Source of the DNA: Spizellomyces punctatus DAOM BR117
Taxonomy: Eukaryota
DNA: 64,000 nucleotides
Strand: one strand, 5' to 3'
NCBI GenBank assembly: GCA_000182565.2
Contig: KQ257463.1
The position numbers were made by a program, and so were the translations under genes. This document shows positions 2,133-44,517 of the stretch, in pieces (position 1 is the first letter of the stretch; each line of letters opens with the position of its first letter). Under the pieces are notes generated by a model, which saw only the letters and a program-made list of their open reading frames with translations, had not been told where the DNA came from and ran no database searches.

Positions 2133-2644
2133 TATTGAAACTTAGCGCTTGGAACACTGATTTCCCGTGTGGAAATCACTTCTGAAAGGCCTAGTAATGC
2201 CTGTGGCCGCTAGTAAGACTTCTGGGTGCAGTAACTTGTGGGATAACACACTTGTATTAATCCAGAGACGTTCAAAAGTCCCCTTTATATAACCCAGTAC
2301 ATTCTCCAGCCTCCCTCCGCCTTTGTTTACTGTTTACATGCTTCAGCCCACTTGTTTACATGCTCAGCCGTGCTCAGCAGTGCTCAGCAGCTTCAGCCAT
2401 GCCTTGGCAAACATTACCTGAAGATCTAGATCATCACAAACCTTCCAGACCTTCTAAGAGTGCTTACATGATGATTTACCCCTTTAAATCATTCCACACG
2501 CGTCTGTGATCATTCTGATTACTCTAAGTCCAATTCCCCACGTTGCAACTTAGCCAAATCAGATGTGAACTGTCTAATGACATCCCAGCATGATCTCACA
2601 TGATTTATAGATCATACAGCGTGGTTTAAGCCTGAATCTCAACG
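2133..2644 (-). repeat. Copia A 3' LTR
   Basis: 512-bp direct repeat. Confidence 0.92.
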
Positions 2645-3954
2645 CTCCCACTCATTGAATCATCTGATTTCCGACAGAGACCCATTTTACCACAAAGTTT
2701 AAGGTGCTTTGTCTTGGGTAGAGCCTTGGTGAGAATGTCAGCTGTCATTTCTTCTGTCTGACAGTACTTGAGGCTGATTTTCTTGTCTTCTACTGCTTGT
2801 CTGATGAAGTGGTGCTGCACATCAATATGTTTGGTCCTTGCATGATGTGTTGGGTTGTTGGCAAGTGCTATGGCGCCCTGATTGTCACCATACAATGTTG
2901 TAGGACCACTTTGCTGATGTCCTAGCTCGCCTAGAAGTGTTCTGAACCAGATAACTTCCTTGGTAGCTTGACAAAGAGCCATGTACTCTGACTCTGTTGA
3001 TGATAGAGTGACTGTGGGTTGCCTCTTGCTTTGCCAGCTGACTGTGCTGCTGCCAATCTTGACTAAGAAGCCAGTGGTAGACTTCCTGAAGTCCAAATCA
3101 CCGCCCCAATCTGCATCAGAGTATGCAGATAGCTCCCACTTGCTCTGAATGCCACCCAGTTGAAGTCCTAGGTCTCTGGAGCCATTCAGGTACCGCATGA
3201 TCCATTTGACTGCTATCCAGTGCTGATGTCCGGGGTTTCCTTTGGCTACCAGTCTGGCCTTGTAGCGCTCTACAGAGCCATCTGACTTGAGTTTCAGCTT
3301 GAAAACCCACTTGCAGCCCACTGTGGATCTTCCTGGTGGTAGTTTGACTAAGTCCCATGTCTGATTCTCCATCAGAGAGTCATATTCTGCTTTGACAGCT
3401 GCCTCCCACTGTTTGGCATCATGTCTGGTCCTAGCTTCAGGCAGAATGCTGGGTTCTTCCTGTGGAACTTCCCCAATGGTGAAGGCAAAAGCCAGATTTG
3501 ACTGAGTTGGCTTTGCAATCCACCACTCTCCCGGTGGTTTGTGAAATCTGGCACTCTTCCTGCTGAGTTCTGGCACTTCCTCAGCATCCTGGAAGTCGTC
3601 CCCATCATCTTCTGATGCTGAAGAGTTGTCTGGAGTGATGCTAGATGGTCTCTGAGTCTCTTGAACCGTCCCTAGCCCTTCTTGGTCGTCCAAGAACGAA
3701 GGCTCCCCTCCCAGAGGCATCTGTAGCTCTTGGTCTTGCTGTGGTACACTCTGCAGTCGCTGCTGAGTGCTCCACATCAAGTTTTCATCAAAGATGACGT
3801 CCCTTGACATGATAACTTGGTTCATTTCAGGTACCCACAGTCTGTAGGCCTTACTCTGAGTGCTGTAGCTGACCATGACTGCCTTCTTGGCCTTCTCATC
3901 AAGTTTTGACCGCTTTTCTTTTGGAATATGAGTGTAGGCCACGCAGCCAAACAC
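2626..3954 (-). pseudogene. pol: Copia A pol 3' part: integrase tail, RT N-terminus, RT core deleted, RNase H
   Basis: FGCVAY, CKWVFKLK and YKARLVAKG fused directly to NPGHQHWIAVKWIMRYL; no YVDD motif. Confidence 0.88.
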
Positions 3955-5867
3955 TCTGAGGTGCTGGAGATCTGGTTTACTGCCTGTAAACTCTTGAATG
4001 GTGTTGATTGTTTGCTGAGTGCTGCAGTGGGGCTCCTGTTCCTGAGATAGACCACTGTCATGATTGCCTCGCCCCAGAACTTGTAGCTGAGTTCACTGTG
4101 GTGCAGCATGCACCTTCCCATTTCCACCAGCATCCTGTTCATCCTCTCAGCAACACCATTCTGCTCTGGTGTGTAGGGGGTGCTGAATTGCTGCTGAATT
4201 CCCTTCTGTTTGCAGAATTTCTTGAATTCTTCGCCCATATACTCTCCCCCATTGTCTGATCTGAGAGTTTTGATCTTCTGTCCTGTGAAGTTGGTTGCCC
4301 AGGCCTCAAACTCCTTGAATTTGCTGAGAACCTCACTCTTCTCCTTCAGAAGATAAACTGCCGTCATCCTTGACTTGTCATCAATGAATGTGACAAAGTA
4401 CTTTGCCCCACCATGACTTGGTGTCTTCATGGGCCCACACACATCACTGTGAACCACCCCCAGCAGTAGAGCCGCTCTAGCTGCTTCTCCCTTTGGAAAG
4501 GGACGCCTGGTGATCTTTCCAATGGCACAGGCTTCGCATGGTGATGTTTCTGTGTGACTCTTGACCTCCAGACCGCTTCCCAGCTGGTTCCTAGCCAAGA
4601 TTTTGATGCTGTTGACGTTCAGGTGTCCTAACCTGCGATGCCAGAGGTCCAAACTCATTCCAGAGGCTATGTTTGCATGTTCTCTTGCATGAAACATGTA
4701 TAGACCGCCCCCTAGAGTTCCCTGGATTGCTTCCTGACCGTCTGAAGTCTTGATACAGCATCCCTTGCTGCCAAACTCAACTTTGGCACCGTTTTCAGTG
4801 GCTCTTCTTACTGAAAACAAGTTCTTTTCAAGCTTGGGAACAAACCACACGTCTCTGAGGGTACAGAATCGGTTTCTGCCTGTCTCAAGTGTGATCTGGC
4901 CCTTCCCTATTGCCTGAACTGTTCTGTTGTCCGCCAGATGGACTTGAATTGGTGACATCTCCATGTAATTGGTCATCCAATCCTTCCTGTGTGACATGTG
5001 CTGTGAAGCACCCGAGTCCACAATCCACCAGACTGCTCCCTGAGAGGTTTTGGTGTCATCTCCTGACTGAGCAAAGAATAGGAACTCATTCTGAGTTGCC
5101 TGACTGGTGCTGGCTTGATTGGCTTGTTGTTTGGTGTCCGCCAGAAACTTCCTGCAGTCCTTCTTGAAGTGACCCTTCTTGTTGCAATAGAAGCACTTCC
5201 CTGCTATCTTCTTGGTCCCACCATGCTTGCCAACCTTCTGCCCACCATCCCTGCTGAAAAAGGCCTTCCCTTTGCTATCTCCTTCACTCCCAGCTTCCTT
5301 CCTGCGTGTTTCTTCATGCAAAAGCCGTGAGGTGAGGAATTCCAGCATCAGAGAATCACTCCTGGCCTCCAAAGACACCACCAGCTGTTCATAACTCTCT
5401 GGTAGGCTGTAGAGTAGGGTGATGACTTGGTCTTCTTCACTGACTGGCGCCCCAATGGCCTCCAACTGCTGAGCCATTGTCCTGACCGTGTTTATGTGTC
5501 CCAACATGCCCCCAGTGCCATCTTCCATCTTCAGAGTGAGAAATTTCCTCCTTAGATAGAGCCTACTGGCAATTCCTTTCCTTTGGTGGACGTCACTGAG
5601 CTTTAACCAGGCCTCTTTTGCAGTTACAGCGGTCTGTACATGCATGAGTTGGGCATCACTCAGTGACAGAGCAATTACTGCCATTGCCCGCTCATCCCTT
5701 CTCCTCCAATCCTTGTCAGAGGTTCCCTCCATGCTCTCATCTCCTTCAATCACACCCCACAGCCCCTTTTCCTTCAGCAACATCGTCATTTTGAACTTCC
5801 AGAGGTGGTAGTTCACACCATTGAACTTTTCCATTGTGAGTTTGGTGTCCAAGTCCGTGTTTGACAT
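3822..5867 (-). CDS. gag-pol: Copia A Gag (UBN2-type)-protease-integrase, frameshifted near 3990
   Basis: NYHLWKFKM, CFYCNKKGHFKKDC, WIVDSGASQHM, WHRRLGH, VHSDVCGP, RSDNGGEY, PEQNGVAER. Confidence 0.92.
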   Translation of the reverse strand: MSNTDLDTKLTMEKFNGVNYHLWKFKMTMLLKEKGLWGVIEGDESMEGTSDKDWRRRDERAMAVIALSLSDAQLMHVQTAVTAKEAWLKLSDVHQRKGIASRLYLRRKFLTLKMEDGTGGMLGHINTVRTMAQQLEAIGAPVSEEDQVITLLYSLPESYEQLVVSLEARSDSLMLEFLTSRLLHEETRRKEAGSEGDSKGKAFFSRDGGQKVGKHGGTKKIAGKCFYCNKKGHFKKDCRKFLADTKQQANQASTSQATQNEFLFFAQSGDDTKTSQGAVWWIVDSGASQHMSHRKDWMTNYMEMSPIQVHLADNRTVQAIGKGQITLETGRNRFCTLRDVWFVPKLEKNLFSVRRATENGAKVEFGSKGCCIKTSDGQEAIQGTLGGGLYMFHAREHANIASGMSLDLWHRRLGHLNVNSIKILARNQLGSGLEVKSHTETSPCEACAIGKITRRPFPKGEAARAALLLGVVHSDVCGPMKTPSHGGAKYFVTFIDDKSRMTAVYLLKEKSEVLSKFKEFEAWATNFTGQKIKTLRSDNGGEYMGEEFKKFCKQKGIQQQFSTPYTPEQNGVAERMNRMLVEMGRCMLHHSELSYKFWGEAIMTVVYLRNRSPTAALSKQSTPFKSLQAVNQISSTSECLAAWPTLIFQKKSGQNLMRRPRRQSWSATALRVRPTDCGYLK

Positions 5868-6034
5868 GTCTGAGCTGATTTGGTGAGTGGATTTGTTGTT
5901 GGGGAAGAGGTAAAATCGTCCTAGTATGGTAGGTGGTCCAAATATGAGGTTGGGAAGGAGATAGGTCCGTCAGGAAGATGGTGTGGCCGTCAGAAAAGAG
6001 ATTTGAAGCAGGAAAATATCAGTGATAGCTATCA

Positions 6035-6046
6035 GGGCTCATAACC
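6035..6046 (-). promoter_or_regulatory. Primer-binding site GGTTATGAGCCC (half-tRNAiMet type)
   Basis: Abuts the 5' LTR; complementary to the tRNAiMet anticodon-arm sequence GGGCUCAUAACC, as in Drosophila copia and Ty5. Confidence 0.85.
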
Positions 6047-9749: not shown

Positions 9750-11412
9750 TAATGCTCCATTTTCCAAATCTTGTAAGCATCTGTCTGTCGAATGTGGTGG
9801 AGAGGTTCCCAAGTGTTCTTGCTATGTGGGTATCCTTTCCATTTGATGAGGAATTGTGGTTTACCGAGTCATCGGCATTGGTCAATAATCTCCTTGACTT
9901 CATATTTGGGAATCCCTGCGATATGAACAGGAGGTGGTGGTACTACTACATTCCTATAGCGGTGAGATGCTGGGTCTTCATATTTCTTTAGGACACTAAC
10001 ATGGAAGATAGGATATAAGGCAGATAGGCGAGTATCCTGTAACTTGAGCTCGTAGGTGTTTGGATAAGGTCCTATTGCTTTGATTGTGTAGGGACCGATC
10101 CAGCTAGCAGCTAGCTGTGCTGGTTTTTGTAGACTAATGTCTACCTCAATCCCTTTGTGATTGAGTAGGACCTGGTCTCCTATGGTGAAGGTAATAGCTG
10201 TGCATCCTTTGTTATAGTGTCCAGCATATTCATCCTGTAGTTCCTTCATGCAGTGTTGAATGATTATGGCTATTTCATCCATCACTTTTTTGATGTCCTT
10301 AATCTCATTTTGGTCGATAGGTTTCATCATTTGGAGTTCTGTGGAAGTAATGACTCCATCTGCTTGTAAGGGCATTCACCTGATATCTGCCTTGAATGGT
10401 GTCAGTCCATGTTGATTTGGGGTGTTGTTCAATGCGAACTCAAGGAGAGGAAGATACTGTGGCCAATTATCTGCCGCATAGTTGAGGTACAGCTGATATA
10501 TAGACTTTACTGTCCATATCATCCGTTCACATTTGCCATCAGTTTGTTGGTGTCAGGCACTAGCAAATTGGTGTTTCATACCAAGGACTTTACAGAAGGC
10601 CTCAAAGAAATCAGAAAGGGCTTTCGGGTCATGGTCTGTAATAAAGATCCTGGATGCTCCTACATTCTTGTAGACTTGGGACAAATATGTCTGTGCAAGA
10701 TCCCAAGCATTGGAAGCTTGGAGTGTTGGTACGAGGATGGTCTGGTTAGTCAAGTAATCAATGAAACAAAGAATGGCATTGGGTCAGAATCCATGGGTGC
10801 TATTGCCTGGAGGCATATAAGTCATATCAAACCCGATCATATGCCATCGACTATTAGGGATAGGTAATGGTCACAAAAACCCGTGCTTTTGTAAAGGGTT
10901 CTTGTATTGTTGGCATTCAGGACAAGTCCAAATGTATGCATAGATGTCATGTTCGAGGTGAGGCCAATAGAATCTTCATAGAATTTTAGCTAATGTGCAT
11001 CATTGACCTTCATGCGAGCCATCTATTAGGCTGTTGTGATATTGCTGTAAGATTCTAGTATGCTGCATTTCTGGTACATATAGCGAGTCCTTCTCATAAG
11101 TTAGGAGGTCATTTTGTATTGCATAGCATCATAGCCTTGATCCTAAGGCATGGGCTGGTGTTGTCTTCAACGTTTTGATTATTGTAAGGGCATAATTGTC
11201 TTGGCTCAGTGCCTGAATCGATTCTTCGCAATTAAATGGCATTAGCATGGTCTCGGTGCTGGCAACTAATATGGCTTGCAACTGGATTCATTGTTGACAC
11301 TCTGCACATCGGGGTGCATAGTGTGGGTTCCACGAAGGAATGTCTGCAACATGGTTAACTTGTCCGGGCATGTATTCGATCGTCATGTCGAATTGTTGTA
11401 ATGTTTCAACCC
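9750..11412 (-). pseudogene. pol: Gypsy B integrase-chromodomain (outer copy)
   Basis: WIGPY, YPIFHVSVLKKY, YEVKEIID...FLIKWKGY...TWEP; many in-frame TGA stops. Confidence 0.85.
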
Positions 11413-11767
11413 TGTTAGCAATCACAGGTAGCAGACCTCTAAGCCACTGAACTGCTATGCCATGCAGGCATGTCTTCACTGCGCCATGCGCCACATGCGC
11501 CATGCATGTCGTTAGATTTCTCTTGCATCGCTAGTAGTATATTAAAGAATGACTTCTTAACATACAATAGACTTCTTAACATCTATACAAGAGTAGAGTT
11601 CACTCTGTTCCTACTCTCTATCACTAATACATTCCCTATAGGAATATACCCTCACTAGCTAACAGGTTATGAGCCCTGGAAGTAGAGTACCACTTCAAAG
11701 AACACCGCCTCTCACATGCAGCAAAATGCTGGCATGATGAGGCAGCGCTCAAGGAACTTCTACATGC

Positions 11768-14700
11768 ATGCAAGGCATACCATATTTGGACGAACCCTCC
11801 GAGCAGGACCTCCTAAATCAGTCTGTATATCATGACACACTCCCGGAGGACCCTGAAAACACAGACCCAGATGTTGGGTACAGCAGATACCTATTGGACC
11901 CTGTACGGGACCCTGGGGCGCACGTGCCCAAACAGGAAATGGACCAAATAAAGATGGAAATATGGCCAAGCACTCTGGCTGAGGGCACCAGTGAGAGAAG
12001 AATGGAATACTCTGCAGAATATCCTCCAAGTGGGACATATGCTGTGCGCCCGGAGGACATGGACTCGAGCAATTGAATAGATAGGCTTGAAGCACTTGTT
12101 GGACAGCTCATTCTCACTGTAAAAAGAGAAAACAGCAAAGAAGCTGTGAGGACTGAACCAACAGTGCAAACCCATTATGGAAAAGCACAGTATGCGGACG
12201 AGCAAAGGGCAAGACTGCATACACCTAGTGGGGGCATACCACACAGTGGGCCGCCAAACCCTCTCCTACAACCACCCAGCACTTACCACATAGCGATGTC
12301 AGTGAGGTCAAATTCACCCACAAGCTCAGTTTACATGTCAACATCAAGTACGGCAGACAAGCGCGGATGCAGAGCATTTGTGGATGGGATGCTAAAGGAT
12401 ATCGGGCAATATAATGGGGAACCAAATACTATGAAGCTCAATACATTTCTGGGCAGAGTAGACATGGTAATAAAGCACCAGATGGTTCCACCTGACATGG
12501 TTGTAGACTTTGTGAGCACCAAATTCATGGGATTAGCTCAACAATGGTGGACATCACTGTCACCAACAAGACAGGCAAGCTTTACTGCTTGGTATGATCA
12601 AGAGGATGGACACGGACGAACAATAACTGGGTTACGGTCTGCCTTGTATGTGCGCTTCATGCCACGAACACATATGCATGATACATTGAGATGGTTGAAA
12701 CAATTAAAGCCCAAGACAAACCAGTCCCAGAGCATGGATGAGTTTGTGGCATATTTCAACTCTCAGATATACTCACTACCATCTATGCCTGATTTTATTA
12801 AACAGGACTACTTCATTTCTGCCCTACCGGCAGAAGTAGCAGCACTGCTGCAATCCAATGAGGAAAACCTTACCTCTCTGGAAACCCTACAAGAAGCGGC
12901 AACCCGAATCTATCCAGTGATTCACAAGCATGCGAAACCCCAGGGAGGCAGTATGCACGCCGCCCCTGCACAGGTCACGCAAATGGACAATGCATCTGGA
13001 CAATCCACGACTTCCAAAAAGGGAAAGAAAGGAAAACAAAAGAAGCAAAATGAGGGCCACATCGAGAAGCAACCGAATTCAAACCAACACTCAAATCAAA
13101 ACTCGAATCAAAGTACACCTTGACCATGCAGATACTGCAATGCATCACATCCAAGGACTGTATGTCCCTTGATCCTCAAGCTGGTCCAGAAACAATCCAA
13201 CTGCTTGAGTGCAAGCCTAACAGAGGCTTGCCATGTGGAAATGGTACACGATGATGTGCCGTACAGTGCTCTTATCAATTCCGGCGCGACTGACCATATG
13301 ACACCCAATAGGGGTCATTTGGATCCCTCCACCATATATCAGGATGTGAGGAATGTCAGCTTAGCTGACAACACCATTTTAAAATCAACTGTACAAGGCA
13401 ATGTTATCATCAAAGCAGATGGATATTCGACTCCACTCGAATTGCGTGATGTCCTCCATGTTGATGGGCTGCAGAAAAACCTAATCTCCATCCCCAAATG
13501 TAATGAAAATGGTGTGGATGTAACCTTCCACAGTAGTGGAGAAGTTTCTCTCATGAAAAACAGGTGACAAATTGCAAGCGGCATATGATGGAACAATGCA
13601 TATTACCTGGAAGGAACCCTGAAACCCCAGGGCTTTCCAGATACAGAAGTCTGTGCAACAGAGGTATCACCTGCCCTTGCACATGCCAGACTCGGACACA
13701 TAGGACAACATGTCCTAGGAAAGATGGCATTGGCTATGCTCAGCTGGCCCATAGTGGGGGCTCACAGTCATAGGGACTGTGAGGCATGCATACTTGGAAA
13801 ATCATCCTGCACACCATTTCCACCAGCAAACAAAGAACCAAGAGAACTTTGTGAGCTAATTCACTCCAATCTACAAGGACCATTCTGAATTACAGGCCTG
13901 GATGGAGAATGCTACGCTCTCGTGTACATTGAGTACACCTCTAGGTATGGTGTCACTTACTGCATACCAAACAAGGAAGCAGAGACCATCCTCTCCAAAT
14001 TCAAGGAATTCAAGGCATGGCTCGAATGCACCACAGACAAGAAAATATGCACTGTTCATACAGACCGAGGAGGCGAATATCATGGCATATTCCACAAGTA
14101 CCTGATGGACTGTGGCATCCAGCATCAACAGACTACGGCATACTCCAGTCAACAGAACAGCATTGCTGAGCGCTGGAACCATACAAGCTTAGGGCGAGTA
14201 TGCGCCATCTTCGCAGACATGAAACTGCCATGGAAACTATGGGCCATCCTAATACAAATGGTGACCTACCTCCATGATCTCACTCCAAACTCTTTGAGTG
14301 ACAAAACCCCCCACGAGCTACTATTTCAATGCCGCCCCAACGTCACGCACCTCAGGCACATTGGCTGCATTGCGTATGCCCATGTCCCTGCTGCTGGCAG
14401 AGACAAGATGGCCAACAGAGCAAGGAAGACATACCTAGTGGGGTATGCCCAACAAAATGGCACCAAGGCCTACCTTGTTTGGGATCTGGTATGCAATGCT
14501 ATTGCGACCTCCAGGGACATCAAGTTTAACGAAGACGCCCCTCTTGAACTCAAATATCAGCAAGATCCTAGCACTATGGATCTGCTGGATGAGACCACTT
14601 CCGATGATGATCAGGAGTATCAAATTGACTACATCATGGACAAATGCCAGACTCGCGTGCACAAGCCTGAATACCTTGTGAAATGGACTGGTTATACAGA

Positions 14701-16390
14701 CCCTACCTGGGAACCCCGAGTCACTGTCGATGACACACAAGTGCTGGACACATGGGAAAACTGCATCCAAGCATATGCCATTGATGTGCATACAGGAAAA
14801 ATAAACCCTGAGTCCCTGACCTTTAAACAGGCAATGGCAACTCCAGATGCCAACGACTACCTGATAGCCTGCCAACAGGAAATTGAATCCCTGAAGGCAC
14901 ACGGCACGTACGTCACTGTACCGCATCCGCCCCATAAGCATGTGATCAGCACAAAGTGGGTTTGCCACAAAGTATTCAACCCTGATGGCACATTCAAGAA
15001 ATACAAAGCCAGAGCAGTATGCCAAGGCTTCACCCAAAGGCCAGGAATCGACTTTGATGATATGTATTCCCCAACCTTACCACTTCCAATCCTCCGCCTC
15101 TTCCTCATGTACATGGTCCAACATGGATTGGACATACACTCAATGGATTCCGTCACTGCTTTTCTCAACAGTGAAATGGACAAGGAAGTCTTCATTGAGC
15201 AATTTGAAGGCTTTGAACTACCTAACAAGCCAAGGAAAAGCTGGGTACTGATGCTGAAAAAGGCGCTCTATGGCCTGAAGCAGTCACCCCTCCTCTGGTA
15301 CCAAAACCTCAGAACTGCCCTGGAAGAACTCGGCTACTGCGTGGTGGAAATAAGCCCCTGCATGTTCTACAAGTACGCCGCGCCAGGGCACACCAACTCC
15401 GATGTTCAGCCATCCCTGTTGACGCTCGTAATCATAATGATCTTCGTGGATGATCTACTGATCCTAACCAAGGATCCTGAACAAATGAATGAGTCAAAGA
15501 AGGAGCTTCATAGTAAGTTTTCCTTTATGGACCAAGGTCACATAACCAACCATCTAGGACTGGCATATGAGTATGACATCTCCGCAGACATAAGGACCCT
15601 CAAGTTCTCCAACCCGATGTATATTGACAACCTGCTTGACCATTTCAAATTAATGAACTGCCATGCAATTGCCACACCATATGCCATGTCCGTGCGCAGT
15701 CAACAGATGCAAGAATCAGCACCTTTCCCTAACCCCAAGATATACCAAGAAGCAGTGGGGGCCCTTACTTGGGCTTCTATCTCATGGCAATGGGACATTG
15801 CCACTGCGGTCGGATATGTTGCGCGCAACGTCAGCACACCTACCCAATGTGATTGGGAGGCAGTCAAGCATATCTTCAAATATCTGAAAGGAACAAGGGA
15901 CTTTGCCATTACCTACACATCCCTGGAGAAAGATCCCTGCGGTCTCAGGGTGTATACAGATGCGGACTATGCAGGCGACCTCTCGGATTGCAAATCTATG
16001 TCCGGCTTGCTAGCTACCTGGAATGGCTACCCCATCCATTGGAAAAGTAGCAAGCAAACCTGTGTTGCCCATAGCACCACAGAAGCAGAGTACATCACAG
16101 CAAGTGTGGGATTCAGAGAGATCCTCTGGATACACCAAATCCTCGCGGACATGTTTAAGCCCATTGCTGGCTTCCAGCTCGTGCCCACCCCTCTCCATAT
16201 TGACAATGAGAGTGCTGCCACTTTAGCCCAAACCAAGGCCATAAACCAATGCATGAAACATATTGATAGGCATTACCATGGTATATGCAGAGGTGTCACA
16301 GATAAACAAATCGTGATTCTGGACATGGATACAAAGGAGCAGATGGCTGATTACTTCACCAAGCCATTAACCCAGGAGGATCATAATTGA
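11768..16390 (+). pseudogene. gag-pol: Copia C Gag-PR-IN-chromodomain-RT-RNase H polyprotein, apparently one frame interrupted by stops
   Basis: ORFs 11768, 12146, 13169 and 13922 share one frame; CRYCNASH...C knuckle, INSGATDHM, HTDRGGEY, YLVKWTGY...TWEP, YKARAVCQG, LYGLKQS, FVDD, YTDADYAG, ADYFTK. Confidence 0.9.
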
Positions 16391-16524
16391 CTGAGACTGT
16401 GAATCATGGATGGCCTGGATAATATTCAAATGCATGCATGACCCGCGTATGTGGAGGCAAACTCAGTGGAAGCTGAAATGCACGGGGATTGTGAAACACG
16501 ACAACTGAATATGATTGATATAAA

Positions 16525-17553
16525 TTATACAGAAATACCAGCACCACCCAAACCACCAAATCCACCTGCGCCGCCCACACCACCAAATCCACCAAAAGGG
16601 CCAAACAGATCATCCCAACTGTCCAAATCCTCGCTGTCCTTCCCCTCACTCTCCCCCTCTTCCTCCTCCTCTTCCTCACCCTCCCTCACCATCTCTGCAA
16701 ACTCCTCCCCCTCATCAGTCACCACCTCCTCCAAGAGCTTGGTGAGCTTCGCAATCTCGTCGCGCACCACGCCCGCAGCCTTTTTCTTCACATGCCGGGC
16801 TTTCTCCTTCTGGAACTCAGTAGGAGGGAAGGCTGGGGCCCTTCCACTCCTCCAAGCCCTATTCAGAGAAAGGTCTTGGAGACCACGGTACTTCCCCAGA
16901 GCTTCCAGATGCATGGGACTGTGTACGGGCAAGGATCGCGTAACCTCCTGTTCAGTCTTTGCCAAAGACAACTGCCTCTGCAACACCTCTTCCCTATCCT
17001 TCCGGTGTTGCAAGAAGGCACAGCGGCGCGCTGCCTCTATGAACTCATCCTTGAGTGCGCTAAGCTTGCATGCAGGCTCTGGGACTTTTCCCACTGCTTT
17101 TGCCACTTTTCTCTTGGCTGTTAACACCACAGCCTCAAAAACCCCTCTCCTGGGTCTCTCCTCTTCCTTAGGAGTCTTGCCTTGTCTGCCCTCTGGTCGT
17201 GCACCCGCCTCTGCCCTCAGTGACACCACCCCACTCACCGCTCCCTCTACCAAAGGAGCCGGCCCCTGCCACCACTTCTTGCCAAATCCAGGAAACAAAG
17301 GGCCACCAGGGGATGCCGCACTACTCTCCGCCGAGAGCTCGCGCAGCTGTTGGGAAAGGCCCTTTCCCCAAGACTTCTCGCTGGGAAGCTCGAACTTCCC
17401 CTTTTCCTTGCCCTTCTTAGATGAAGGGACCAGCAGGACATCAGGCGTGGTCTCCTGCTCCGCAGACCACTCGCGGATTAGCTCGGCCAATGTCTTTGCA
17501 TGGGGTGGCTCTCCCTTGGCCTTGCCTTTGCCTTTATCTTCCTTTGGTGCCAT
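16525..17553 (-). CDS. Extra antisense ORF of copia C, 342 aa, unknown function
   Basis: Open ATG-to-stop frame between pol and the 3' LTR; basic N-terminus, coiled-coil-like middle, acidic and Gly/Phe-rich tail. Confidence 0.7.
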   Translation of the reverse strand: MAPKEDKGKGKAKGEPPHAKTLAELIREWSAEQETTPDVLLVPSSKKGKEKGKFELPSEKSWGKGLSQQLRELSAESSAASPGGPLFPGFGKKWWQGPAPLVEGAVSGVVSLRAEAGARPEGRQGKTPKEEERPRRGVFEAVVLTAKRKVAKAVGKVPEPACKLSALKDEFIEAARRCAFLQHRKDREEVLQRQLSLAKTEQEVTRSLPVHSPMHLEALGKYRGLQDLSLNRAWRSGRAPAFPPTEFQKEKARHVKKKAAGVVRDEIAKLTKLLEEVVTDEGEEFAEMVREGEEEEEEEGESEGKDSEDLDSWDDLFGPFGGFGGVGGAGGFGGLGGAGISV

Positions 17554-19764
17554 AATACAAAAAAAAAAAAAGAGCTGGAAACACCGTTAGCAGCTAGCCA
17601 AATGAGCTCTGCAAGTCTGCAATGATGTCACGGCAGGTCTTACAGTTGATAGAAGTATGTGTGAAAGTGTAGAAAGTCGGTGGGCAATGGGTTCTTGTCT
17701 TGTAAAGAAAATAGCGGTTCAGACTTTTGACAGGTCTGAGTGGGGGTGTTAGCGATCACAGGTAGCAGACCTCTAAGCCACTTAACCGCTACGCCACGCA
17801 GGCGCATCTTCACTGCGCCACGCGCCACATGTGCCACACACGTCATTAGATTTCTCTTGCATCACTAGTAGTATATTAAAGAATGACTTCTTAACATACA
17901 ATAGACTTCTTAACATCTATACAAGAGTAGAGTTCACTCTGTTCCTACTCTCTATCACTAATACATTCCCTATAGGAATATACCCTCACTAGCTAACAAA
18001 CCCATCCTGCTTGTCATCAGGAAAGGTGTGGCTGCGTTTGAAGGTAGATCAGACTTTTATGGCCAGTGAAGGCACAGAAGAAGATACCAATCAGATATGG
18101 GTGGTTATGTTTCAAGAACTTGACTAGGGCTAAAAGTTCCTGTTTGTGAACTGGATACCACATCTCGGCGGGTTTCATCTTATGGGAGTAAAATGAGACT
18201 GGTCATAGACAGGGTAGTGCTTTAAGTTCTTGGATGGTTTTCGGCAGCAGAGATGGTATCTCATCTTCTGGGTCTGTAGTCTGGGCTAGCCATCCGCTGA
18301 TCGCAAATCCTGATGAATCAGTGAAGATGAAAGTGTCTTTGGTTGGGTCAAAGGTCACCAGGATGGGTGCAGTTGTAACGTCAATCGACCAGATTGCTCT
18401 AGTCGATGTTTTCTGGTGAATCATTGGGCCCTGTGAGAGGGCTGTATAAAGACTTTGTTGTTAATACAAGAGAAAGGGAACTATTGATAGTTCCTCACAT
18501 TGCTAACTAGGCTAGTTGTTCTTCTAGTTTTTCCTTGCTTGCTGCCCCCCTTTCTGAGGGGCTTTGGAGCAGCACTCTTTTATGCTTGCTCCCTCCTTCA
18601 GTGGGGCATCGGCATGAGATTTCCCACCTCTGCCAGTGTGGTCCCTCTTGTGCCAATTGGAAGTGATTGGCACTAGCAAATAAAGAGACAAATAATCTTC
18701 TAACTACGGGGCCACCATGGAACCGAATGACTTTGACAGGTCATCGGCGTGGCGGGGCTTACATAATCTAACTACTGTTACATGCTGCACCATACTTTGG
18801 CCATACATGGCTACATGATCACTATAGCTATATATGGTGATATGAGAGACGTGTCACGAAAATCTAAGTCCGCACGTTAAGTGTGAATACTAAAGGACAG
18901 GTCTACCTTACAATTGTTTGGGGGCTGACCCCTGGAGCAGCTTCACCCGGTGCTCACGGGGACCATTTGCTGAGTCATCACTCCATTTCTGGCCCTTTTA
19001 TACTTTATACAATTTGGGGGCTGACCCCTGGAGCAGCTTCACCCGGTGCCCACGGGCACCATTTGCTGAGTCGTCACTCCTTCTGGTCATGTATATACTT
19101 TATACAAAAATGTGCTTATTGCTATCTTAGTGCTAGACAAGCCTTTTTACTCTTGTTGCATCATCTACATACTAAAGCCCTACTGAATATACACGCGTAC
19201 TTGGAAGCCTCTTTTTACTTACAAAGAACCAGTTGCTTTGTTCTTTTAAATGGGAGCGTATTTCGCTTTCCCCTCTATCATTCTTACTACCCACTGTTGA
19301 TAACATCTTTCTTCAAAGAATGTCTTTTCTCCACATGGACATCACAATGTGGCTTGGTCCACACTTGAGACTGACTGCACGCATAAGCTCTGCATGATTT
19401 ACGCAGGCACCTTGCTTATCACGTCATGGGAATGGTTATGGAGGTGGTGACCCAGTGGGTCATTGCCTCCATGGTCCCATGCATAGCATTTTGCATGCTC
19501 GGGTAAGTCATTGTTCATTGTCGATTTCTTTTGTCTTTCATGTTGTTAATCGGAGTGGACTGGATTTAGATTTTTGACCAGTCAGGGGCTTGAGAGTATT
19601 TTCAAGCCCAGTCGTTCTCAACAAACCCCTGAAAAACATATTGTTTTTGTTCCATTTTGGGCTGTTGGGACCTTGCGCTTGGGGTTTGTGGTTGGTGTGG
19701 GTCTGTTGGGTATGCTTGTATACTTGTAATAGATGTCATCTTCGTAAATATATGTTTCACATTC

Positions 19765-22700
19765 TTAATGCTCCATTTTCCAAATCTTGTAAGCATCTGT
19801 CTGTCGAATGTGGTGGAGAGGTTCCCAAGTGTTCTTGCTATGCAGGTATCCTTTCCATTTGATGAGGAATTGTGGTTTACCGAGTCGTCGGCATTGGTCA
19901 ATAATCTCCTCAACTTCATATTCGGGAATCCCTGTGATATGAACAGGAGGTGGTGGTACTACTATGTTCCTATAGCGGTGAGATGCCAGGTCTTTGTATT
20001 TCTTTAGGACACTAATGTGGAAGATAGGATATAAGGCGGATAAGCGAGTATCCTGTAACTTGAGCTCGTAGGTGTCCGGATAAGGTCCTATTGCTTTGAT
20101 TGTGTAGGGACTGATCCAGCTAGCAGCTAGCTTTGCTGGTTTTTGTAGACTAATGTCTACCTCAATCCCTTTGTGATTGAGTAGGACCCAGTCTCCTATG
20201 GCAAAGGTAATAGCTGTGCATCCTTTGTCATAGTGTTCAGCATATTTATCCTGTAGTTCCTTCATGCGGTGTTGAATGATTACGGCTATTTTGTCCATTG
20301 CTTTTTTGATGTCCTTGATCTCATTTCGGTTGATAGGTTTCATCGTTTGGAGTTCTGTGGAAGTAATGACTCCATCCGCTTGTAAGGGCATTCACCCAAT
20401 ATCTGCCTCAAATGGTGTTAGTCCATGTTGATTCGGGGTGTTGTTCAATGTGAATTCGAGGAGAGGAAGATACTGTGGCCAATTGTCTGCCACATAGTTG
20501 AGGTACGGCCGATATATGGACTTTACTGTCCATATCATCCATTCGCATTTGCCATCAGTTTGTTGGTGTCGGGCACTAGCGAATTGGTGTTTCATACCAA
20601 GGACTTTACAGAAGGCCTCAAAGAAATTGGAAAGGGCTTTTGGGTCATGGTCAGTAATAAAGATCCTGGATGCTCCTACATTCTTGTAGACTTGGGACAA
20701 ATATGTCTGCACAAGATTGCGAGCATTGGAAGCTTGGAGTGTTGGTATGAGGATGGTCCGGTTAGTCAAGTAATCGACGAAACAAAGAATGGCGTTGGGT
20801 CGGAATCCATGGGTGCTATTGCCCGGAGGCATATAAGTCATATCGAACCTGATCGTATGCCATCGACTATTAGGGCTTGGTAATGGTCGCAAAAACCCAT
20901 GCTTCCATAAAGGGTTCTTGTATTGTTGGCTTTCAGGACAAGTCCGAATATATGCGTAGATGTCACGTTCAAGGTGAGGCCAGTAGAATCTTCGTAGAAT
21001 TTTAGCTAATGTGCATCGTTGACCTTCATGCGAGCCATCTATTAGGCTATCATGATATTGCTGTAAGATTCTAGTACACTGCTTTTCTGGTATGTATAGC
21101 TGGTCCTTCTCGTAAGTTAGGAGGTCATTTTGTATTGCGTAGCATTGTAGCCTTGATCCTAAGGCATGGGCTGGTGTTGTCTTCAATGTCTCGATTATTG
21201 TGAGGGTGTAATTGTCTTGGTTCAGTGCCTGAATCCATTCTTCGCAACTAAATGGCATTAGCATGGTCTCAGTGCTGGCGACTAATATGGCTTGCAACTG
21301 GATTCATTGTTGACACTCTGCACATCAGGGTGCATAGTGTGGGTTCCACAAATGAATGTCTGCAACATGGTTAACTTGTCCGGGCATGTATTCGATTGTC
21401 ATGTCGAATTGTTGTAATGTTTCAACCCATCCTGCTTGTTTTTGGGAAAGATGCGGCTGCATCTGGAGGTAGATCAGACTCTTATGGTCAGTGAAGGCAC
21501 GGAAGAAGATACCAATCAGATATGGGTGGTTATGTTTCAAGAACTTGACTAGGGCTAAAAGTTCCTGTTCATGAACTGGATACCATGTCTCGGCGGGTTT
21601 CATCTTATGGGAGTAAAATGAGACTGGTCATAGATGGGGTAGCGCTTTAAGTTCTCCGATGGTCTTCGGCAGCAGAGATGGTATCTCATCTTCCAGGTCT
21701 GTGGTCTGGGCTAGCCATCCACTGATCACAAATCCTGATGAATCAGTGAAGATGAAAGTGTCTTTGGTTGGGTCAAAGGTCATCAGGATGGGTGCAGTGG
21801 TAATAGCATTTTTGATCTTTTCGAATGCCGCTTTTTCTTCTTCTTTCCATTGCCATGTTTTCTTTCCAGATTGTAGTTGCGAGAGGGGCATCACGATTTC
21901 TGCATATCGGTCGATGAAGTCAATGAAGTAATTAGTTAATCCTAAGAATCATTGGACATCATGATGGTTTCACAACTCTGGCCAGTCTTGAACAGCTAGG
22001 ATCTTGCTGGGAGCAATCTGTATTCCGTTTCGTCCGATAATATGTCTGCAGAACTCGACCTCAGGTTGTCCCCACATGCACTTGGCTGGGTTCACATAGA
22101 GTTTGTGTTCAGTTAAGACTCGAAGCACAATATCTACATGCTTCTGGTGTTCCTCCATTGTCCTGGAGAATACCAGGATGTTGTCAAGGTAGGCGAGGAC
22201 TAGGTCATCATAATGTGGGCCAAGGATCTTGTTGATGAGGCGCTGAAATGCAGCTGGAGCGTTAGTTAATCCAAAAGGCATTACCAGATACTCAAAGTGT
22301 CCGAATCATGTATGAATGGCAGTCTTTTGCACATCGTGTGGGTTTATTCTGATGCGATGGTAAGTGTCTTTGATGTCAATACTCGTGAAGCACTTTGCAC
22401 CGGCTACCCAATCTCGCATCTCCTGTAGATTTGGTAGCGGGGTCCGGTCCTTTTTGGTTATGGCATTTAGTCCTCGATAGTCTAAACATACTCATAATCC
22501 CCCATCCTTCTTCTTGGCAAACACTATCTGGGCTCCCCAGGGGCTAGTGGAGTGTCGTATTTGTCCTTTCGCTAGGAGGTTGTTGAGCTGTTGGCGAAGC
22601 TCCTCTAACTCATTGGTACTCATATGTTGTAAGGGGTATGTGAGTGGTTTAGCTCCAGGAAGGAGTTCAATGCTAAAATTGTCTTCCCCTCGGTCTGGGG

Positions 22701-23598
22701 GGAACTCGCCATTCTCGGTAAAAAGCGTGTTGTTGTATTTATTGAGTGTAACCTTAAGGAATCCTGTGCATCCATTATCGGCTGTGTCAAACTCTCCTTT
22801 TCTTTTCTTGCCTTTTGTGTAGAGCCTTGCTGCATGGAAACTCATGTAGCGATCATCGACTTCCTCTGGTTGGATCCTCCATGCTGTCAGGTATCTGTTA
22901 TGTTTGATATCTTTGTCGAATTGCTTGGAGGAGCATTCATCCCATGTCGTCTTGGGTTGAATAAACTGTGAGGGGGGTTTGCCGAATCCTCTCAGATGGG
23001 CGGCATGATATGAGGCAGTGGCTTCCCATGCTCTGCTGGTCCATTGCGCCTCGATGTTGTGGCTCATGTTGTTAAAGTTAAACCGAAGGGTCGGTCATTG
23101 TGTTGTCCAATCGATGGAGACCTGCTTAAGGAGTTTTAATAGAGGTAACCCTATCACTGCATCAATGCCAATATTTGCTACAATGAAAGGGATCTTTCCA
23201 AGGTTTATGAATCCTCGAGGTTGCAAATTGGACAAGACTAGTGAAGAGGTTATCATCAAGTTCGATAGGCTCTGAGATCCTTCTTCGCCCCATTTTATCC
23301 AAATGGGTTGCTCTGGAGCATACTGTTCAAAATGATGTCAGTTTGCAAACTTCTTGTTGATGAGGTAGCTTGTACATCCAGTGTCAAATAATATTCTAGC
23401 AAACTTATCGCCGATACATCCATGGATAATGAAGGGCTCCTCAATCTCAGGATTTTTGATCTTGGTGTCATCATGATGTAACAGTTCTTCCTTTTGGTCC
23501 TGATCTGGTAGTCGTGGTACAATGACCTCATGCATGTGTACCATAGCCGCTGAAGGGATCAGGGCAGTCAGCGGCTTTGCTAAAAATCCTCCATTCAT
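19765..23598 (-). pseudogene. pol: Gypsy B pol (PR-RT-RH-IN-chromodomain), many stops
   Basis: LFDTGC, MPFGLTNAPA, YLDNIL, FTDSSG, TDHKSL, QTDGKCE, FLIKWKGY. Confidence 0.9.
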
Positions 23599-23834
23599 TC
23601 ATCCTCAAAGATTTCTTCAATCGAGGATGGTTCCTCTTGTTCTGCCCAGGTGGGCTCATCGGCCTCCATGGTTTGGTACTCAATTGGGGGGTTTTCAGTT
23701 GTCGTTGATTGAACCTGGGATTGGGACATTCTGACTCCACATCCCCTTCCTGGTCCTGTACCTCTGGTAGAGGGTTGTCCGGGTCCACGAGGAGTTCCTC
23801 AACCTCGTGGCAACTGCGTGGGGTACGGGGCAGC

Positions 23835-24917
23835 TCATACTGGAGCAGATGGACATTGATGAGCATAATGCCCTCTTCCTCCGCAGTTATTGCAGACAAT
23901 GCCAGAGCTTGCTCTCGTTACTGGCCAAGTGGCACCTCGGGTTACCATGGATGTCATGCGGCCGCGGAAGGATCCTCGTCCATGAGTGGACAGGTGACTT
24001 GGCATTGTTAAGGATGGTGCGGGTGCACTGATCCAATCGATGAGTCCCCGATCATTATATGCCATATGAAGGCTCTGCTGGAGGGGGACCAATACATCAT
24101 CTTCATCATTCATTAGTGACAGCATTGTTTTCATCGAGATGAGATGATTATATAATGCTTCTCCTACTCCGCAGTTTCGGCATACGCCCTCCATATAGTA
24201 CCGCAGAATGTTGGCATCCGGTATTCTAGGTCGGCCTGTAAATCGATGGCCTGAGATATCCTCTCCCACAAGGGCGTTAAAGGCCTGGGTGTACTCCGTG
24301 ACACTCTGGCCCATGGTTAAGTTCCGGAACCGCTGGTGGAGATTATTTCGAGAGTCACGGGGGATGAACCTGTGAACACAGGCGGTTTCCAGCTCCTCGA
24401 GAGTATTGGCATGATGGTTGAAGCTAGTCCGGTTGTGCCACCAATCTAAAGCTGGACCCATGAGATAGGTTTGGATATGTGCCTCCACATCCGATCTTCT
24501 TCCTTCATTAGCATGTGCAACATGAAGGTAGCTCCTATGGGCTCCTAGGAACTCTTCTAGTTGACGAGCATCTGGCATGCCATCATATGTATGCAACCGT
24601 GCCCTGAGTGTGCTGAGCGTTGCATTAATCATCATTTCTTGCTGGCGCTCAATGCGGCAGGCAGCTGCAGCATTGGCCGCAGCTTGTTGCATGATCACGT
24701 TCCCGAACGCTTGCTGTTGCACTAGGTTGGTGAGGGTTACCAGGAGCCTGTCTAGATGACCAGGACCTGGAGGGATTGGCAGCTGTGGTGGGGGTGGCAT
24801 CGGTGCCGGCCCTGGTTCTTGCGGCGGCTGGTTGTTCTGCGGTACAGCCTCGAATTGGAAGACTGGGTTCTCTCCCTCTTCCTTGACAGTGATGAACGGG
24901 TGATTGTCTTTGGACAT
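23835..24917 (-). pseudogene. gag: Gypsy B gag
   Basis: YLMGPALDWW, GQSVTEYTQAF, CNNCGGRGHYAHQC. Confidence 0.88.
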
Positions 24918-25592
24918 TTCAGATCATTCATGGGGCTCTGGGCTGAAGGTAGAAGCTTCTGAGTTTCTATCAGAGGCGAATGGGTCGAAGATGATAGAGG
25001 GTTAAATGTCTTCCGATTCTGTAGCATGTGTGGTAGTCTCAGGTGGTGCTACCATGTAACGTCAATTGACCAGATTGCTCTAGTTGACGTTTTCTGGCAA
25101 ATCATTGGGCCCTGTGAGAGGGCTGTATAAAGACTTTGTTGTTAATACAAGAGAAAGGGAACTATTGATAGTTCCTCGCATTGCTAACTAGGCTAGCTGT
25201 TCTTCTAGTTTTTCCTTGCTTGCTGCCCCCATTTCTGAGGGGCTTTGAAGCAGCGCTCTTTTATGCTTGCTCCCTCCTTCGGCGGGGCATTGGCATGAGA
25301 TTTCCCGCCTCCGCCAGTGCGGTCCCTCTTGTGCCAATCAGAAATGATTGGTGCTAGTGAATAAAGAGACAAATAATCTTCTAACTATGGGGCCACCGCG
25401 GAACCGAATGACTTTGACAGGTCATCGGTGCGGCAGGGCTTACATAATCTAACTACTGTTATGCGCTGTGCCATACTTTGGCCATACATGGCTACATGAT
25501 CACTATAGCTATATATGGTGATATGAGAGACACGTCGCGAAAATCTAAGTCCGCATGTAAGTGCGAATACTAAAGGACAGGTCTACCTTACA

Positions 25593-28500
25593 GCAGTGGT
25601 AATAGCATTTTTGATCTTTTCAAATGCCGCTTTTCCTTCTTCTTTCCATTGCCATGTCTTCTTTCCAGATTGTAGTTGTGAGAGGGGCATCACAATTTCT
25701 GCATATCAGTCAATGAAGTCAATGAAGTAATTAGTTAATCCTAAGAATCATTGGACATCATGATGGTTTTGCAACTCTGGCCAGTCTTGGACAGCTAGAA
25801 TCTTGCTGGGAGCGATCCGTATTCCATTTCGTCCGATAATATGTCTGCAGAACTCGACCTCAGGTTGTCCCCACATGCACTTGGCTGGGTTCACATAGAG
25901 TTTGTGTTCAGTTAAGACTCGAAGCACAATATCTACATGCTTCTGGTGTTCCTCCATTGTCCTGGAGAATACCAGGATGTCGTCGAGGTAGGTGAGGACT
26001 AGGTCATCATAATGTGGGCCAAGGATCTTGTTGATGAGGCGCTGAAATGCAGCTGGAGCGTTAGTTAATCCGAAAGGCATCACAAGATACTCAAAGTGTC
26101 CAAATCATGTACAAATGGCAGTCTTTTCCACATCACGTGGGTTTATTCTAATGCGATGGTAAGCATCTTTGATGTCGACACTCATGAAGAACTTTGCACC
26201 AGCTACACAATCTCACATCTCCTGTAGATTTGGTAGCGGGGTCCGGTCCTTTTTGGTTATGGCATTTAGTCCTCAATAGTCTAAACATACTCGTAATCCC
26301 CCATCTTTCTTCTTGGCAAACACTATTTGGGCTCCCCAGGGGCTAGTGGAGTGTCATATTCGTCCTTTCGCTAGGAGGTCATCGAGCTGTTGATGAGGCT
26401 CCTCTAACTCATTGGTACTCATATGTTGTAAGGGGTATGTGAGTGGTTTAGCTCCAGGAAGGAGTTCAATGCTAAAATTGTCTTCCCCTCGGTCTGGGGG
26501 GAACTCGCCATTCTCGGTAAAAAGCGTGTTGTTGTATTTATTGAGTGTAACCTTACGGAATCCTGTGCATCCATTATCGGCTGTGTCAAACTCTCCTTTT
26601 CTTTTCTTGCCTTTTGTGTAGAGCCTTGCTGCATGGAAACTCATGTAGCGATCATCGACTTCCTCTGGTTGGATCCTCCATGCTGTCAGGTATCTGTTAT
26701 GTTTGATATCTTTGTCGAATTGCTTGGAGGAGCATTCATCCCATGTCGTCTTGGGTTGAATAAACTGTGAGGGGGGTTTGCCGAATCCTCTCAGATGGGC
26801 GGCATGATATGAGGCAGTGGCTTCCCATGCTCTGCTGGTCCATTGCGCCTCGATGTTGTGGCTCATGTTGTTAAAGTTAAACCGAAGGGTCGGTCATTGT
26901 GTTGTCCAATCGATGGAGACCTGCTTAAGGAGTTTTAATAGAGGTAACCCTATCACTGCATCAATGCCAATATTTGCTACAATGAAAGGGATCTTTCCAA
27001 GGTTTATGAATCCTCGAGGTTGCGAATTGGACAAGACTAGTGAAGAGGTTATCATCAAGTTCGATAGGCTCTGAGATCCTTCTTCGCCCCATTTTATCCA
27101 AATGGGTTGCTCTGGAGCATACTGTTCAAAATGATGTCAGTTTGCAAACTTCTTGTTGATGAGGTAGCTTGTACATCCAGTGTCAAATAATATTCTAGCA
27201 AACTTATCGCCGATACGTCCATGGATAATGAAGGGCTCCTCAATCTCAGGATTTTTGATCTTGGTGTCATCATGATGTAACAGTTCTTCCTTTTGGTCCT
27301 GATCTGGTAGTCGTGGTACAATGACCTCATGCATGTGTACCATAGCCGCTGAAGGGATCAGGGCAGTCAGCGGCTTTGCTAAAAATCCTCCATTCATTCA
27401 TCCTCAAAGATTTCTTCAATCGAGGATGGTTCCTCTTGTTCTGCCCAGGTGGGCTCATCGGCCTCCATGGTTTGGTACTCAATTGGGGGTTTTCAGTTGT
27501 CGTTGATTGAACCTGGGATTGGGACATTCTGACTCCACATCCCCTTCCTGGTCCTGTACCTCTGGTAGAGGGTTGTCCGGGTCCACGAGGAGTTCCTCAA
27601 CCTCGTGGCAACTGCGTGGGGTACAGGGCAGCTCATACTGGAGCAGATGGACATTGATGAGCATAATGCCCTCTTCCTCCGCAGTTATTGCAGACAATGC
27701 CAGAGCTTGCTCTCGTTACTGGCCAAGTGGCACCTCGGGTTACCATGGATGTCATGCGGCCGCGGAAGGATCCTCGTCCATGAGTGGACAGGTGACTTGG
27801 CATTGTTAAGGATGGTGCGGGTGCACTGATCCAATCGATGAGTCCCCGATCATTATATGCCATATGAAGGCTCTGCTGGAGGGGGACCAATACATCATCT
27901 TCATCATTCATTAGTGACAGCATTGTTTTCATCGAGATGAGATGATTATATAATGCTTCTCCTACTCCGCAGTTTCGGCATACGCCCTCCATATAGTACC
28001 GCAGAATGTTGGCATCCGGTATTCTAGGTCGGCCTGTAAATCGATGGCCTGAGATATCCTCTCCCACAAGGGCGTTAAAGGCCTGGGTGTACTCCGTGAC
28101 ACTCTGGCCCATGGTTAAGTTCCGGAACCGCTGGTGGAGATTATTTCGAGAGTCACGGGGGATGAACCTGTGAACACAGGCGGTTTCCAGCTCCTCGAGA
28201 GTATTGGCATGATGGTTGAAGCTAGTCCGGTTGTGCCACCAATCTAAAGCTGGACCCATGAGATAGGTTTGGATATGTGCCTCCACATCCGATCTTCTTC
28301 CTTCATTAGCATGTGCAACATGAAGGTAGCTCCTATGGGCTCCTAGGAACTCTTCTAGTTGACGAGCATCTGGCATGCCATCATATGTATGCAACCGTGC
28401 CCTGAGTGTGCTGAGCGTTGCATTAATCATCATTTCTTGCTGGCGCTCAATGCGGCAGGCAGCTGCAGCATTGGCCACAGCTTGTTGCATGATCACGTTC

Positions 28501-38180: not shown

Positions 38181-38211
38181 GGTGGTAATGGGGTGGAGTC
38201 TTGGGTAGTTA

Positions 38212-44378: not shown

Positions 44379-44517
44379 ACGTAGACCTAGGAGTATTGTT
44401 AGTCGACTGATGATTGGACCGGGATTCGCCGAGCAACCTGTGAATAAGCTAGCGTGGATCTTTGCGACAAGTTGTTTATCGCGTTTCATGTTTCTATGTT
44501 GGCGACATGTTATCATT

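Follow-up and report, generated by a model that had tools for sequence, protein, structure and literature searches.

A decayed retrotransposon of Spizellomyces punctatus with a copia-type Pol, a predicted Ty3-type Gag and an integrase chromodomain, probably from a distinct Ty1/copia lineage

Within the Ty1/copia superfamily, an integrase chromodomain has been reported from diatom elements. In the text available to us, Llorens et al. (2009, PMC2774666) describe a putative one in CoDi-A and in no other copia element, and the accessible sections of Ustyantsev et al. (2017, PMC5348765) list the domain for chromoviruses and CoDi-I alone. Here we describe a long terminal repeat (LTR) retrotransposon at positions 11413-17998 of a 64,000-nt stretch of contig KQ257463.1 from Spizellomyces punctatus DAOM BR117 (GenBank assembly GCA_000182565.2); this whole stretch is called the window below. 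The element joins a copia-type Pol to a chromodomain and to a Gag that, judged by sequence, is of the Ty3/gypsy type. We consider it likely that it is an inactivated autonomous LTR retrotransposon of an old, distinct Ty1/copia lineage with a Ty3-type capsid and an integrase chromodomain.

CoDi-A and CoDi-I of Phaeodactylum tricornutum resemble the element in that, according to the same excerpts (PMC2774666, PMC5348765), they combine a copia Pol with a C-terminal integrase chromodomain. They are diatom elements, placed there in the copia 'Branch 1' with Ty and GalEa, and are compared here by description only; in the portions of the literature covered we found no statement on the type of their Gag. 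Chromoviruses (MAGGY, Tf1 and the Tcn1 clade, PMC2864245, and three families in the window) share with the element the Retrotrans_gag/Ty3 capsid and an integrase chromodomain with a full aromatic cage, and probably also the use made of it, tethering to heterochromatin. They differ in that their reverse transcriptase (RT) is of the RVT_1 type, their domain order is protease (PR)-RT-RNase H (RH)-integrase (IN), their integrase carries Integrase_H2C2 and SH3_Tf2-1, and their protease belongs to the retropepsin type. Classical Ty1/copia elements (copia, Tnt1 and copia A of the window, 2629-5969) share the domain order, RVT_2, Pol_BBD, gag_pre-integrs, SH3_retrovirus and the 5-bp target-site duplication (TSD), but have a PF14223 Gag (E 4e-47 in copia A) and no chromodomain. 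Arthropod CopiaMBD elements (de Mendoza et al. 2019, PMC6673714) are likewise copia elements with a reader of chromatin or DNA marks, proposed in the part of that paper at hand to guide them into silent repeats; they differ in that the reader is a methyl-CpG-binding domain, occurs in arthropods only and was tested biochemically.

Neither a copia element with a Ty3-type Gag nor a fungal copia element with a chromodomain is mentioned in the available text of fungal LTR surveys (PMC3248453, PMC5445492), of the diatom CoDi paper (PMC2806351) and of the CopiaMBD paper (PMC6673714). Likewise, literature searches revealed no paper on a copia element with a Ty3-type Gag, and for a chromodomain in copia they yielded the CoDi reports alone; the lineage may sit in GyDB, REXdb or Repbase unpublished. 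A preliminary description of the window, made from its sequence alone, had suggested an undescribed lineage. This holds in so far as the lineage appears to be distinct and none with this Gag was found described; an integrase chromodomain in copia, however, is already in print for the diatom CoDi elements.

Domain composition and boundaries of the element

The features on which the classification is based are as follows (coordinates in the window, strand, description):

11413-17998: LTR retrotransposon, whole element
11768..16390, +: gag-pol frame, 1540 codons, ATG at 11768, five in-frame TGA
12389..12859, +: capsid part of Gag, predicted Ty3_capsid/Retrotrans_gag type (Pfam, hhalign, AF2/Foldseek)
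13127..13165, +: nucleocapsid zinc knuckle CX2CX3HX4C, aligning with the knuckles of six relatives
13271..13513, +: copia-type protease (Pol_BBD; Pfam E 4.4e-15)
13601..14539, +: integrase with gag_pre-integrs (HHCC), rve core and SH3_retrovirus (Pfam and alignment)
14618..14758, +: chromodomain between integrase and RT (Pfam Chromo, E 3.7e-7, 30.4 bits, cut-off 25.1)
14906..15682, +: reverse transcriptase RVT_2 (FVDD; Pfam E 2.7e-49 and motif alignment)
15900..16387, +: RNase H (TDADYAGD ... ADYFTKP; motif alignment, start approximate)

Gag, PR, IN, chromodomain, RT and RNase H share one frame, in which Pfam finds Ty3_capsid/Retrotrans_gag, Pol_BBD, gag_pre-integrs, rve, SH3_retrovirus, Chromo and RVT_2 in succession. 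These coordinates give Pol the order PR-IN-RT-RNase H of the Ty1/copia type. Pol_BBD, gag_pre-integrs and SH3_retrovirus are found in the element and in copia A and are absent from the gypsy polyproteins of the window; the gypsy traits (RVT_1 RT, order PR-RT-RH-IN, Integrase_H2C2) are absent from the element. Over its full length Pol is 29-32% identical to plant Tnt1-like copia elements, and in the RT trees its RT groups with those of copia elements. By these matches all Pol domains are assigned to the copia type, as the preliminary description had proposed, and the element does not classify as a chromovirus. The gag frame begins upstream of the stretch 12146-13170 that the preliminary description had named for Gag, with an ATG at 11768.

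For Gag the pattern is reversed. Pfam matches it to Ty3_capsid (E 1.5e-6, 28.2 bits, cut-off 29.1) and Retrotrans_gag (E 2.9e-4, 21.5 bits, cut-off 24.1), and copia Gag families give nothing at E<=1. A Gag of copia type (PF14223/UBN2 group or TYA) was thus not recognized, and BLASTP against the Gag of copia A yields no significant match (E 7). To compare profiles with hhalign we used 11 Gags of the lineage that are physically joined to a copia protease or Pol, the 4 window gypsy Gags and 46 PF14223-type Gags. The lineage profile aligns with the gypsy Gags over both capsid lobes and the knuckle (prob 99.8, E 6e-30, 226 columns), and with the copia Gags over the C-terminal lobe and knuckle only (prob 98.0, E 1.7e-13, 131 columns); gypsy and copia profiles align with each other over 65 columns (E 7e-9). 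Among solved structures, a 14-sequence Gag profile, which takes in Gag-only proteins of undefined Pol type, finds Drosophila Arc1 (E 2e-15), a domesticated gypsy capsid, then the Copia capsid (1.4e-6) and Ty3 (2.6e-5).

The AlphaFold model of Gag (mean predicted local distance difference test score, pLDDT, 72; above 88 over about residues 110-280) has the two-lobed retroviral capsid fold. Among its Foldseek matches the dArc1 capsid leads (E 7e-5), with the Copia capsid in 11th and Ty3 in 21st place. The superfamilies are thus told apart by the sequence profiles, but not clearly by the fold. Overall, at the level of sequence the Gag is of the Ty3/gypsy type and not of the kind found in copia A. 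The preliminary description had read it in the same way, and the peptide words it quoted occur in the translation.

The ends of the element are defined by the following features:

11408..11412, +: left TSD AACCC, present once in the uninterrupted paralogue
11413..11664, +: 5' LTR, 252 nt, TGTTAGC...GCTAACA
11665..11679, +: primer-binding site GGTTATGAGCCCTGG, directly 3' of the 5' LTR
17738..17746, +: polypurine-like tract GAGTGGGGG, adjoining the 3' LTR, read from the sequence
17747..17998, +: 3' LTR, 252 nt
17999..18003, +: right TSD AACCC

The LTR termini TG...CA together with a 5-bp target duplication, AACCC immediately outside both LTR ends, agree with Ty1/copia. The flanks of the element are pieces of a minus-strand gypsy pol gene, and alignment shows that a paralogous, uninterrupted gypsy copy at 21330-21520 joins both flanks with a single AACCC. 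Given this empty site, the element was inserted by true transposition with a 5-bp duplication, which bears out the earlier claim of one TSD-bounded element.

A 14/15 match to the primer-site 15-mer adjoins the LTR of the unrelated copia A (PF14223 Gag) at 6032-6046 (-). With nearly identical 15-mers at the same place in two families, a genuine primer site served by a host RNA common to both becomes more credible. The reverse complement of GGTTATGAGCCCTGG has a CAU anticodon loop between stem halves, and it presumably fits the anticodon arm of the eukaryotic initiator tRNA-Met. Such 'half-tRNA' priming is known from Drosophila copia, and the site agrees with the copia-type priming proposed in the preliminary description. 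No tRNA gene was found in the 64,000 nt of the window. From its position next to the 3' LTR, GAGTGGGGG may serve as the polypurine tract.

Relatives and the origin of the Gag

A search with Pol returned 1977 proteins at E<=1e-10, and the following figures refer to the best 120 of these 1977. RVT_2 is present in all 120 and Chromo in 8. Four proteins contain Retrotrans_gag, each of them together with Chromo (4/4); the other 4 of the 8 Chromo-bearing proteins are N-terminally short and have no Gag region. Chromo was found in none of the PF14223-bearing proteins. Rescanning the four full-length relatives confirmed an N-terminal Retrotrans_gag in 4/4 (45.8-57.8 bits, cut-off 24.1) as well as a Chromo between SH3 and RVT_2.

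An exhaustive search with Gag, covering 1.84 billion representatives, gave 19 matches. According to Pfam, 15 of the 19 carry Retrotrans_gag, none carries a copia Gag family and none a gypsy protease family. The copia-type Pol_BBD is found in all six that reach beyond Gag, and RVT_2 in both that reach RT (P0133 with Chromo, P0135 without Chromo at E<=0.01); two weak, sub-threshold RVT_1 matches underlie the RVT_2 matches of these Gag-search proteins. Word-indexed searches with Gag alone gave nothing at near or longer lengths, and a scan of metagenome loci with four close Gag sequences gave one 1123-nt fragment (L001). A candidate from a scan of viral contigs (L122) was rejected as an ordinary chromovirus.

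All five full-length polyproteins among the relatives combine Retrotrans_gag, a copia Pol and Chromo in single open reading frames (ORFs) of 1371-1457 amino acids (aa), and distant relatives from other sources, with 30-38% Pol identity, share the architecture. The mixture of Gag, Pol and chromodomain is therefore a property of a lineage and is neither local nor recent. Since elements are densely nested in the window, which also contains 602 N, it might be argued that a Gag from a separate gypsy fragment came to lie beside a gag-less copia element through nesting or an assembly artefact. We regard this as highly improbable: a single LTR pair, with its TSD and empty site, encloses Gag, zinc knuckle, protease and Pol in a continuous frame, and the five independent full-length relatives encode the same order.

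Recombination in this genome between a resident copia and a resident gypsy element would be another way to obtain such a mosaic, and copia and gypsy/chromovirus elements are indeed adjacent and nested in the window. Nonetheless, the three gypsy Gag families of the window share no more than 22-28% identity with this Gag, against 45% and 55% for its nearest homologues (P0121 and P0122), which excludes a recent local swap. The Gag of copia A gives no significant match, a blastn search with the element against the rest of the window was empty and thus found no other copy, and the distant relatives share the architecture. A recent local origin is accordingly given hardly any credence.

The preliminary description had gone further and proposed that the element was built by module exchange between superfamilies. 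This claim is not sustained in that form, because the closest Gag homologues all reside in copia elements, the window Gag is no closer to other members of its lineage than to the local gypsy Gags, and the trees fit both an exchange and the retention of an ancestral gag. The RT-RNase H tree was built from 50 rows: the element, 12 proteins selected because they have Retrotrans_gag, Chromo or the nearest RT, and one in three of the 109 remaining listed proteins in which the region is complete; P0002 was left out as partial. With one gypsy outgroup (a long branch), the free tree places the element and these 12 proteins as two starred clades (8 + 5 rows) inside a backbone supported by 80-82. The Gag tree (25 rows) is unresolved and saturated with many long branches, and the window gypsy Gags interleave with copia-linked Gags; uniting the window gypsy Gags in one clade is not rejected (p-value of the approximately unbiased test, p-AU, 0.24). 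Taken together, the two trees are compatible with an ancient capture of a gypsy gag as well as with an ancestral-type gag retained in a deep copia branch, and we hold these two origins to be about equally probable.

Under an ancient exchange, an ordinary copia ancestor would have exchanged its gag, by template switching or illegitimate recombination, for that of a gypsy element, probably a chromovirus, and would also have gained the chromodomain. We see this as a serious possibility, if somewhat short of an even chance. Two chromovirus hallmarks, Retrotrans_gag and the chromodomain, occur together, and the free quick RT tree with the gypsy outgroup nests the lineage in the unresolved backbone of PF14223-type copia elements instead of at the base. 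The likeness to gypsy Gags, moreover, spans both capsid lobes, that to copia Gags the C-terminal lobe and knuckle only. However, the backbone supports are just 80-82, and a tree in which the 37 classical copia rows form one clade, with the lineage on the outgroup side, is equal or slightly better (log-likelihood, lnL, +3.1; p-AU 0.53). Also, the lineage Gag profile is closer to the copia Gags (score 102) than the window gypsy Gags are (score 64), a pattern that looks intermediate and not transferred, with profiles that differ in depth. The Gag tree does not resolve the matter, and two events would be needed because Gag and chromodomain lie at different places. Independent, recurrent capture of chromodomains is known, according to the accessible sections of PMC5348765.

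More tentatively, the lineage could be a deep branch outside the classical copia elements, which has kept the capsid, and perhaps the chromodomain-bearing integrase, of a common ancestor of Pseudoviridae and chromovirus Metaviridae. If true, it would be a living intermediate between the superfamilies, and the familiar copia Gag would be the derived state.

Chromodomain, decay of the copy and implications

The chromodomain, the presence of which had been noted in the preliminary description, follows directly C-terminal of the integrase SH3 domain, as in chromoviruses. Alignment shows that the aromatic cage positions Y, W and Y and the motif TWEP are kept in the element, in nine relatives and in three local chromoviruses. 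From what is known of these families, the copia-type protease would cut the single gag-pol polyprotein such that the chromodomain is left as a tail of the integrase. Reverse transcription would be primed at the site typical of copia by an initiator tRNA-Met fragment, and integration would create the 5-bp duplication. The chromodomain, with its cage intact, would then tether the integrase to methylated histone H3 in heterochromatin. Gao and colleagues reportedly found in 2008 that the chromodomain tethers chromovirus integration to heterochromatin. Such tethering fits the place of the element inside a chromovirus pol gene within a nest of transposons.

The copy itself is broken and dead as read from its sequence. 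The gag-pol frame is interrupted by five stops, all TGA (12074, 13121, 13565, 13586 and 13886). The catalytic Asp of the protease reads Asn (NSGATDH, nt 13277), as does the first catalytic Asp of the integrase (nt 13868); the alignment has Asp at each of these positions in 6/6 relatives. The two LTRs differ at 15 of 252 positions, nearly all of them CpG/TpG sites. For CpG the observed/expected ratio amounts to 0.43 in the element, whereas three host genes of the window have values of about 0.93-1.03. Both the low CpG content and the nature of the LTR differences fit decay by cytosine deamination.

Within the window, CpG depletion, measured on 11413-17998, 2629-5969, 33089-38216, 50553-51884, 59922-61408 and 45846-46418, is limited to transposons (0.43 in the element, 0.22 in copia A and 0.01 in a gypsy element), which suggests that the repeats of this genome are targeted by cytosine methylation. 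All seven TGA codons of the pol frame are compatible with CGA-to-TGA decay.

A second copy, differing by about 3% in pol (33/1028 letters), is found in low-coverage DNA contigs of the same organism label (runs X1 and X2). It does not have the TGAs at 16388 and 16400, and the original end of pol is probably the TGA at 16439. The same contigs also show other LTR flanks, which together with the second copy indicates that the family has more than one copy.

Several points weigh against our reading of the element as a member of an old, distinct copia lineage with a Ty3-type Gag and a working chromodomain. The window Gag scores just below both Pfam cut-offs, so that its type is assigned through relatives and profile comparison, and all relatives come from metagenome or run assemblies. 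The RT trees contain no CoDi, GalEa or Ty1 reference sequences, and free quick RT trees split the 13 Retrotrans_gag/Chromo rows into two or three groups; constraining these rows to one clade is not rejected (p-AU 0.84), and the constrained tree gains 27 lnL units over the quick free one. Targeting by the chromodomain is transferred from chromoviruses and concerns a single insertion site, in a window that consists mostly of transposons anyway. The identity of the primer tRNA is putative; when prokaryote genomes were scanned with the 15-mer, chance matches alone turned up (0 tRNAs in 32 loci examined of at least 120 matches), which is uninformative on eukaryotic tRNAs.

Annotation and classification tools treat the types of Gag and Pol as linked markers of a superfamily. 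The lineage would break this link, and domain-based classifiers could misfile or split such elements. It would also represent a second copia group with a chromodomain-bearing integrase, in a fungus-type genome and in environmental eukaryotes, which adds weight to the view that retroelements have repeatedly come to integrate safely by reading heterochromatin marks. Furthermore, the lineage may serve as a test case for capsid genes moving between Pseudoviridae and Metaviridae versus a copia Gag that diverged from a Ty3-like ancestor. The copy at 11413-17998 is a fossil without activity of its own.

The antisense frame and other repeats in the window

Between pol and the 3' LTR the element contains one more candidate feature:

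16525-17586, -: antisense ORF, candidate extra gene rich in E/G/A/K; from the first ATG 16525..17553 (342 aa)

The preliminary description had counted this ORF as an antisense gene of the element. The frame exists and has a gene-like composition; homologues and support from expression were not found. We rate the chance that it is, or was, a gene of the element as about even. A comparable layout, with an antisense ORF between pol and the 3' LTR, is described in the available text of PMC11963269 for plant Retand/Tat gypsy elements; these are elements of a different superfamily from a different kingdom, and no similarity in sequence to the ORF of our element was found.

Little short of evenly probable is that the ORF is not a gene. 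It would then be a shadow or chance frame of a spacer that is rich in G+C and skewed between the strands, or else a captured remnant specific to this copy. Pfam, PDB and Atlas contain no relative and none was found elsewhere in the window; Atlas includes this very sequence, but its model is poor (mean pLDDT 0.45). Two sense frames of 382 and 201 aa are likewise open in the region. In an RNA run of the same species label the depth over the ORF (four bins, 16582-17517) is 0.29 in one bin and zero in the other three, but the data, about 6% of the run with 46 reads in all over the 7 kb, are too few to decide on transcription of either strand. Also, the paralogous contig departs within the 5' end of the ORF.

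Other observations speak against a mere chance frame. An ORF of at least 353 codons arose in only 1 of 2000 simulations of the region under a composition-matched Markov-1 model, and an ATG lies 11 codons into the frame. At the first position of its codons G makes up 0.44 and purines 0.65, similar to gag, pol and host genes, against a first-position G of 0.24 and 0.17 in the two sense frames. The G+C content rises to 0.53-0.60, and the purine-rich strand switches to minus precisely over this region.

We further tried the 382-aa sense frame that follows pol in the pol frame as a coding sequence. Its base composition by codon position and the TGA at 16439, found in the paralogous contig as well, led us to reject it.

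The contig of the second copy diverges from the window sequence at 17522, and consequently the region from pol to the 3' LTR may vary between copies. A region resembling that of the antisense ORF is found elsewhere in the window: a minus-strand ORF of 461 aa (44290-45746) has no Pfam match and overlaps open frames on both strands.

Several other repeats were observed. Three units of about 3.8 kb follow one another head to tail at 21794-33000 (spacings 3798 and 3799, 92-100% identity). A Gag-only ORF (362 aa) that contains Retrotrans_gag and a zinc knuckle lies in each of them, at 23838-24923, at 27636-28721 and, in shorter form, at 31831-32520; a gag-only LTR element may thus be arrayed in tandem here. 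Inside the gypsy polyprotein ORF 34588-37374, a tandem array with an 18-bp period (46 overlapping copies) occupies 36513-37140, with frames open on both strands. Finally, the window starts with a tandem repeat of 12-bp period (1-289, 16 overlapping copies).

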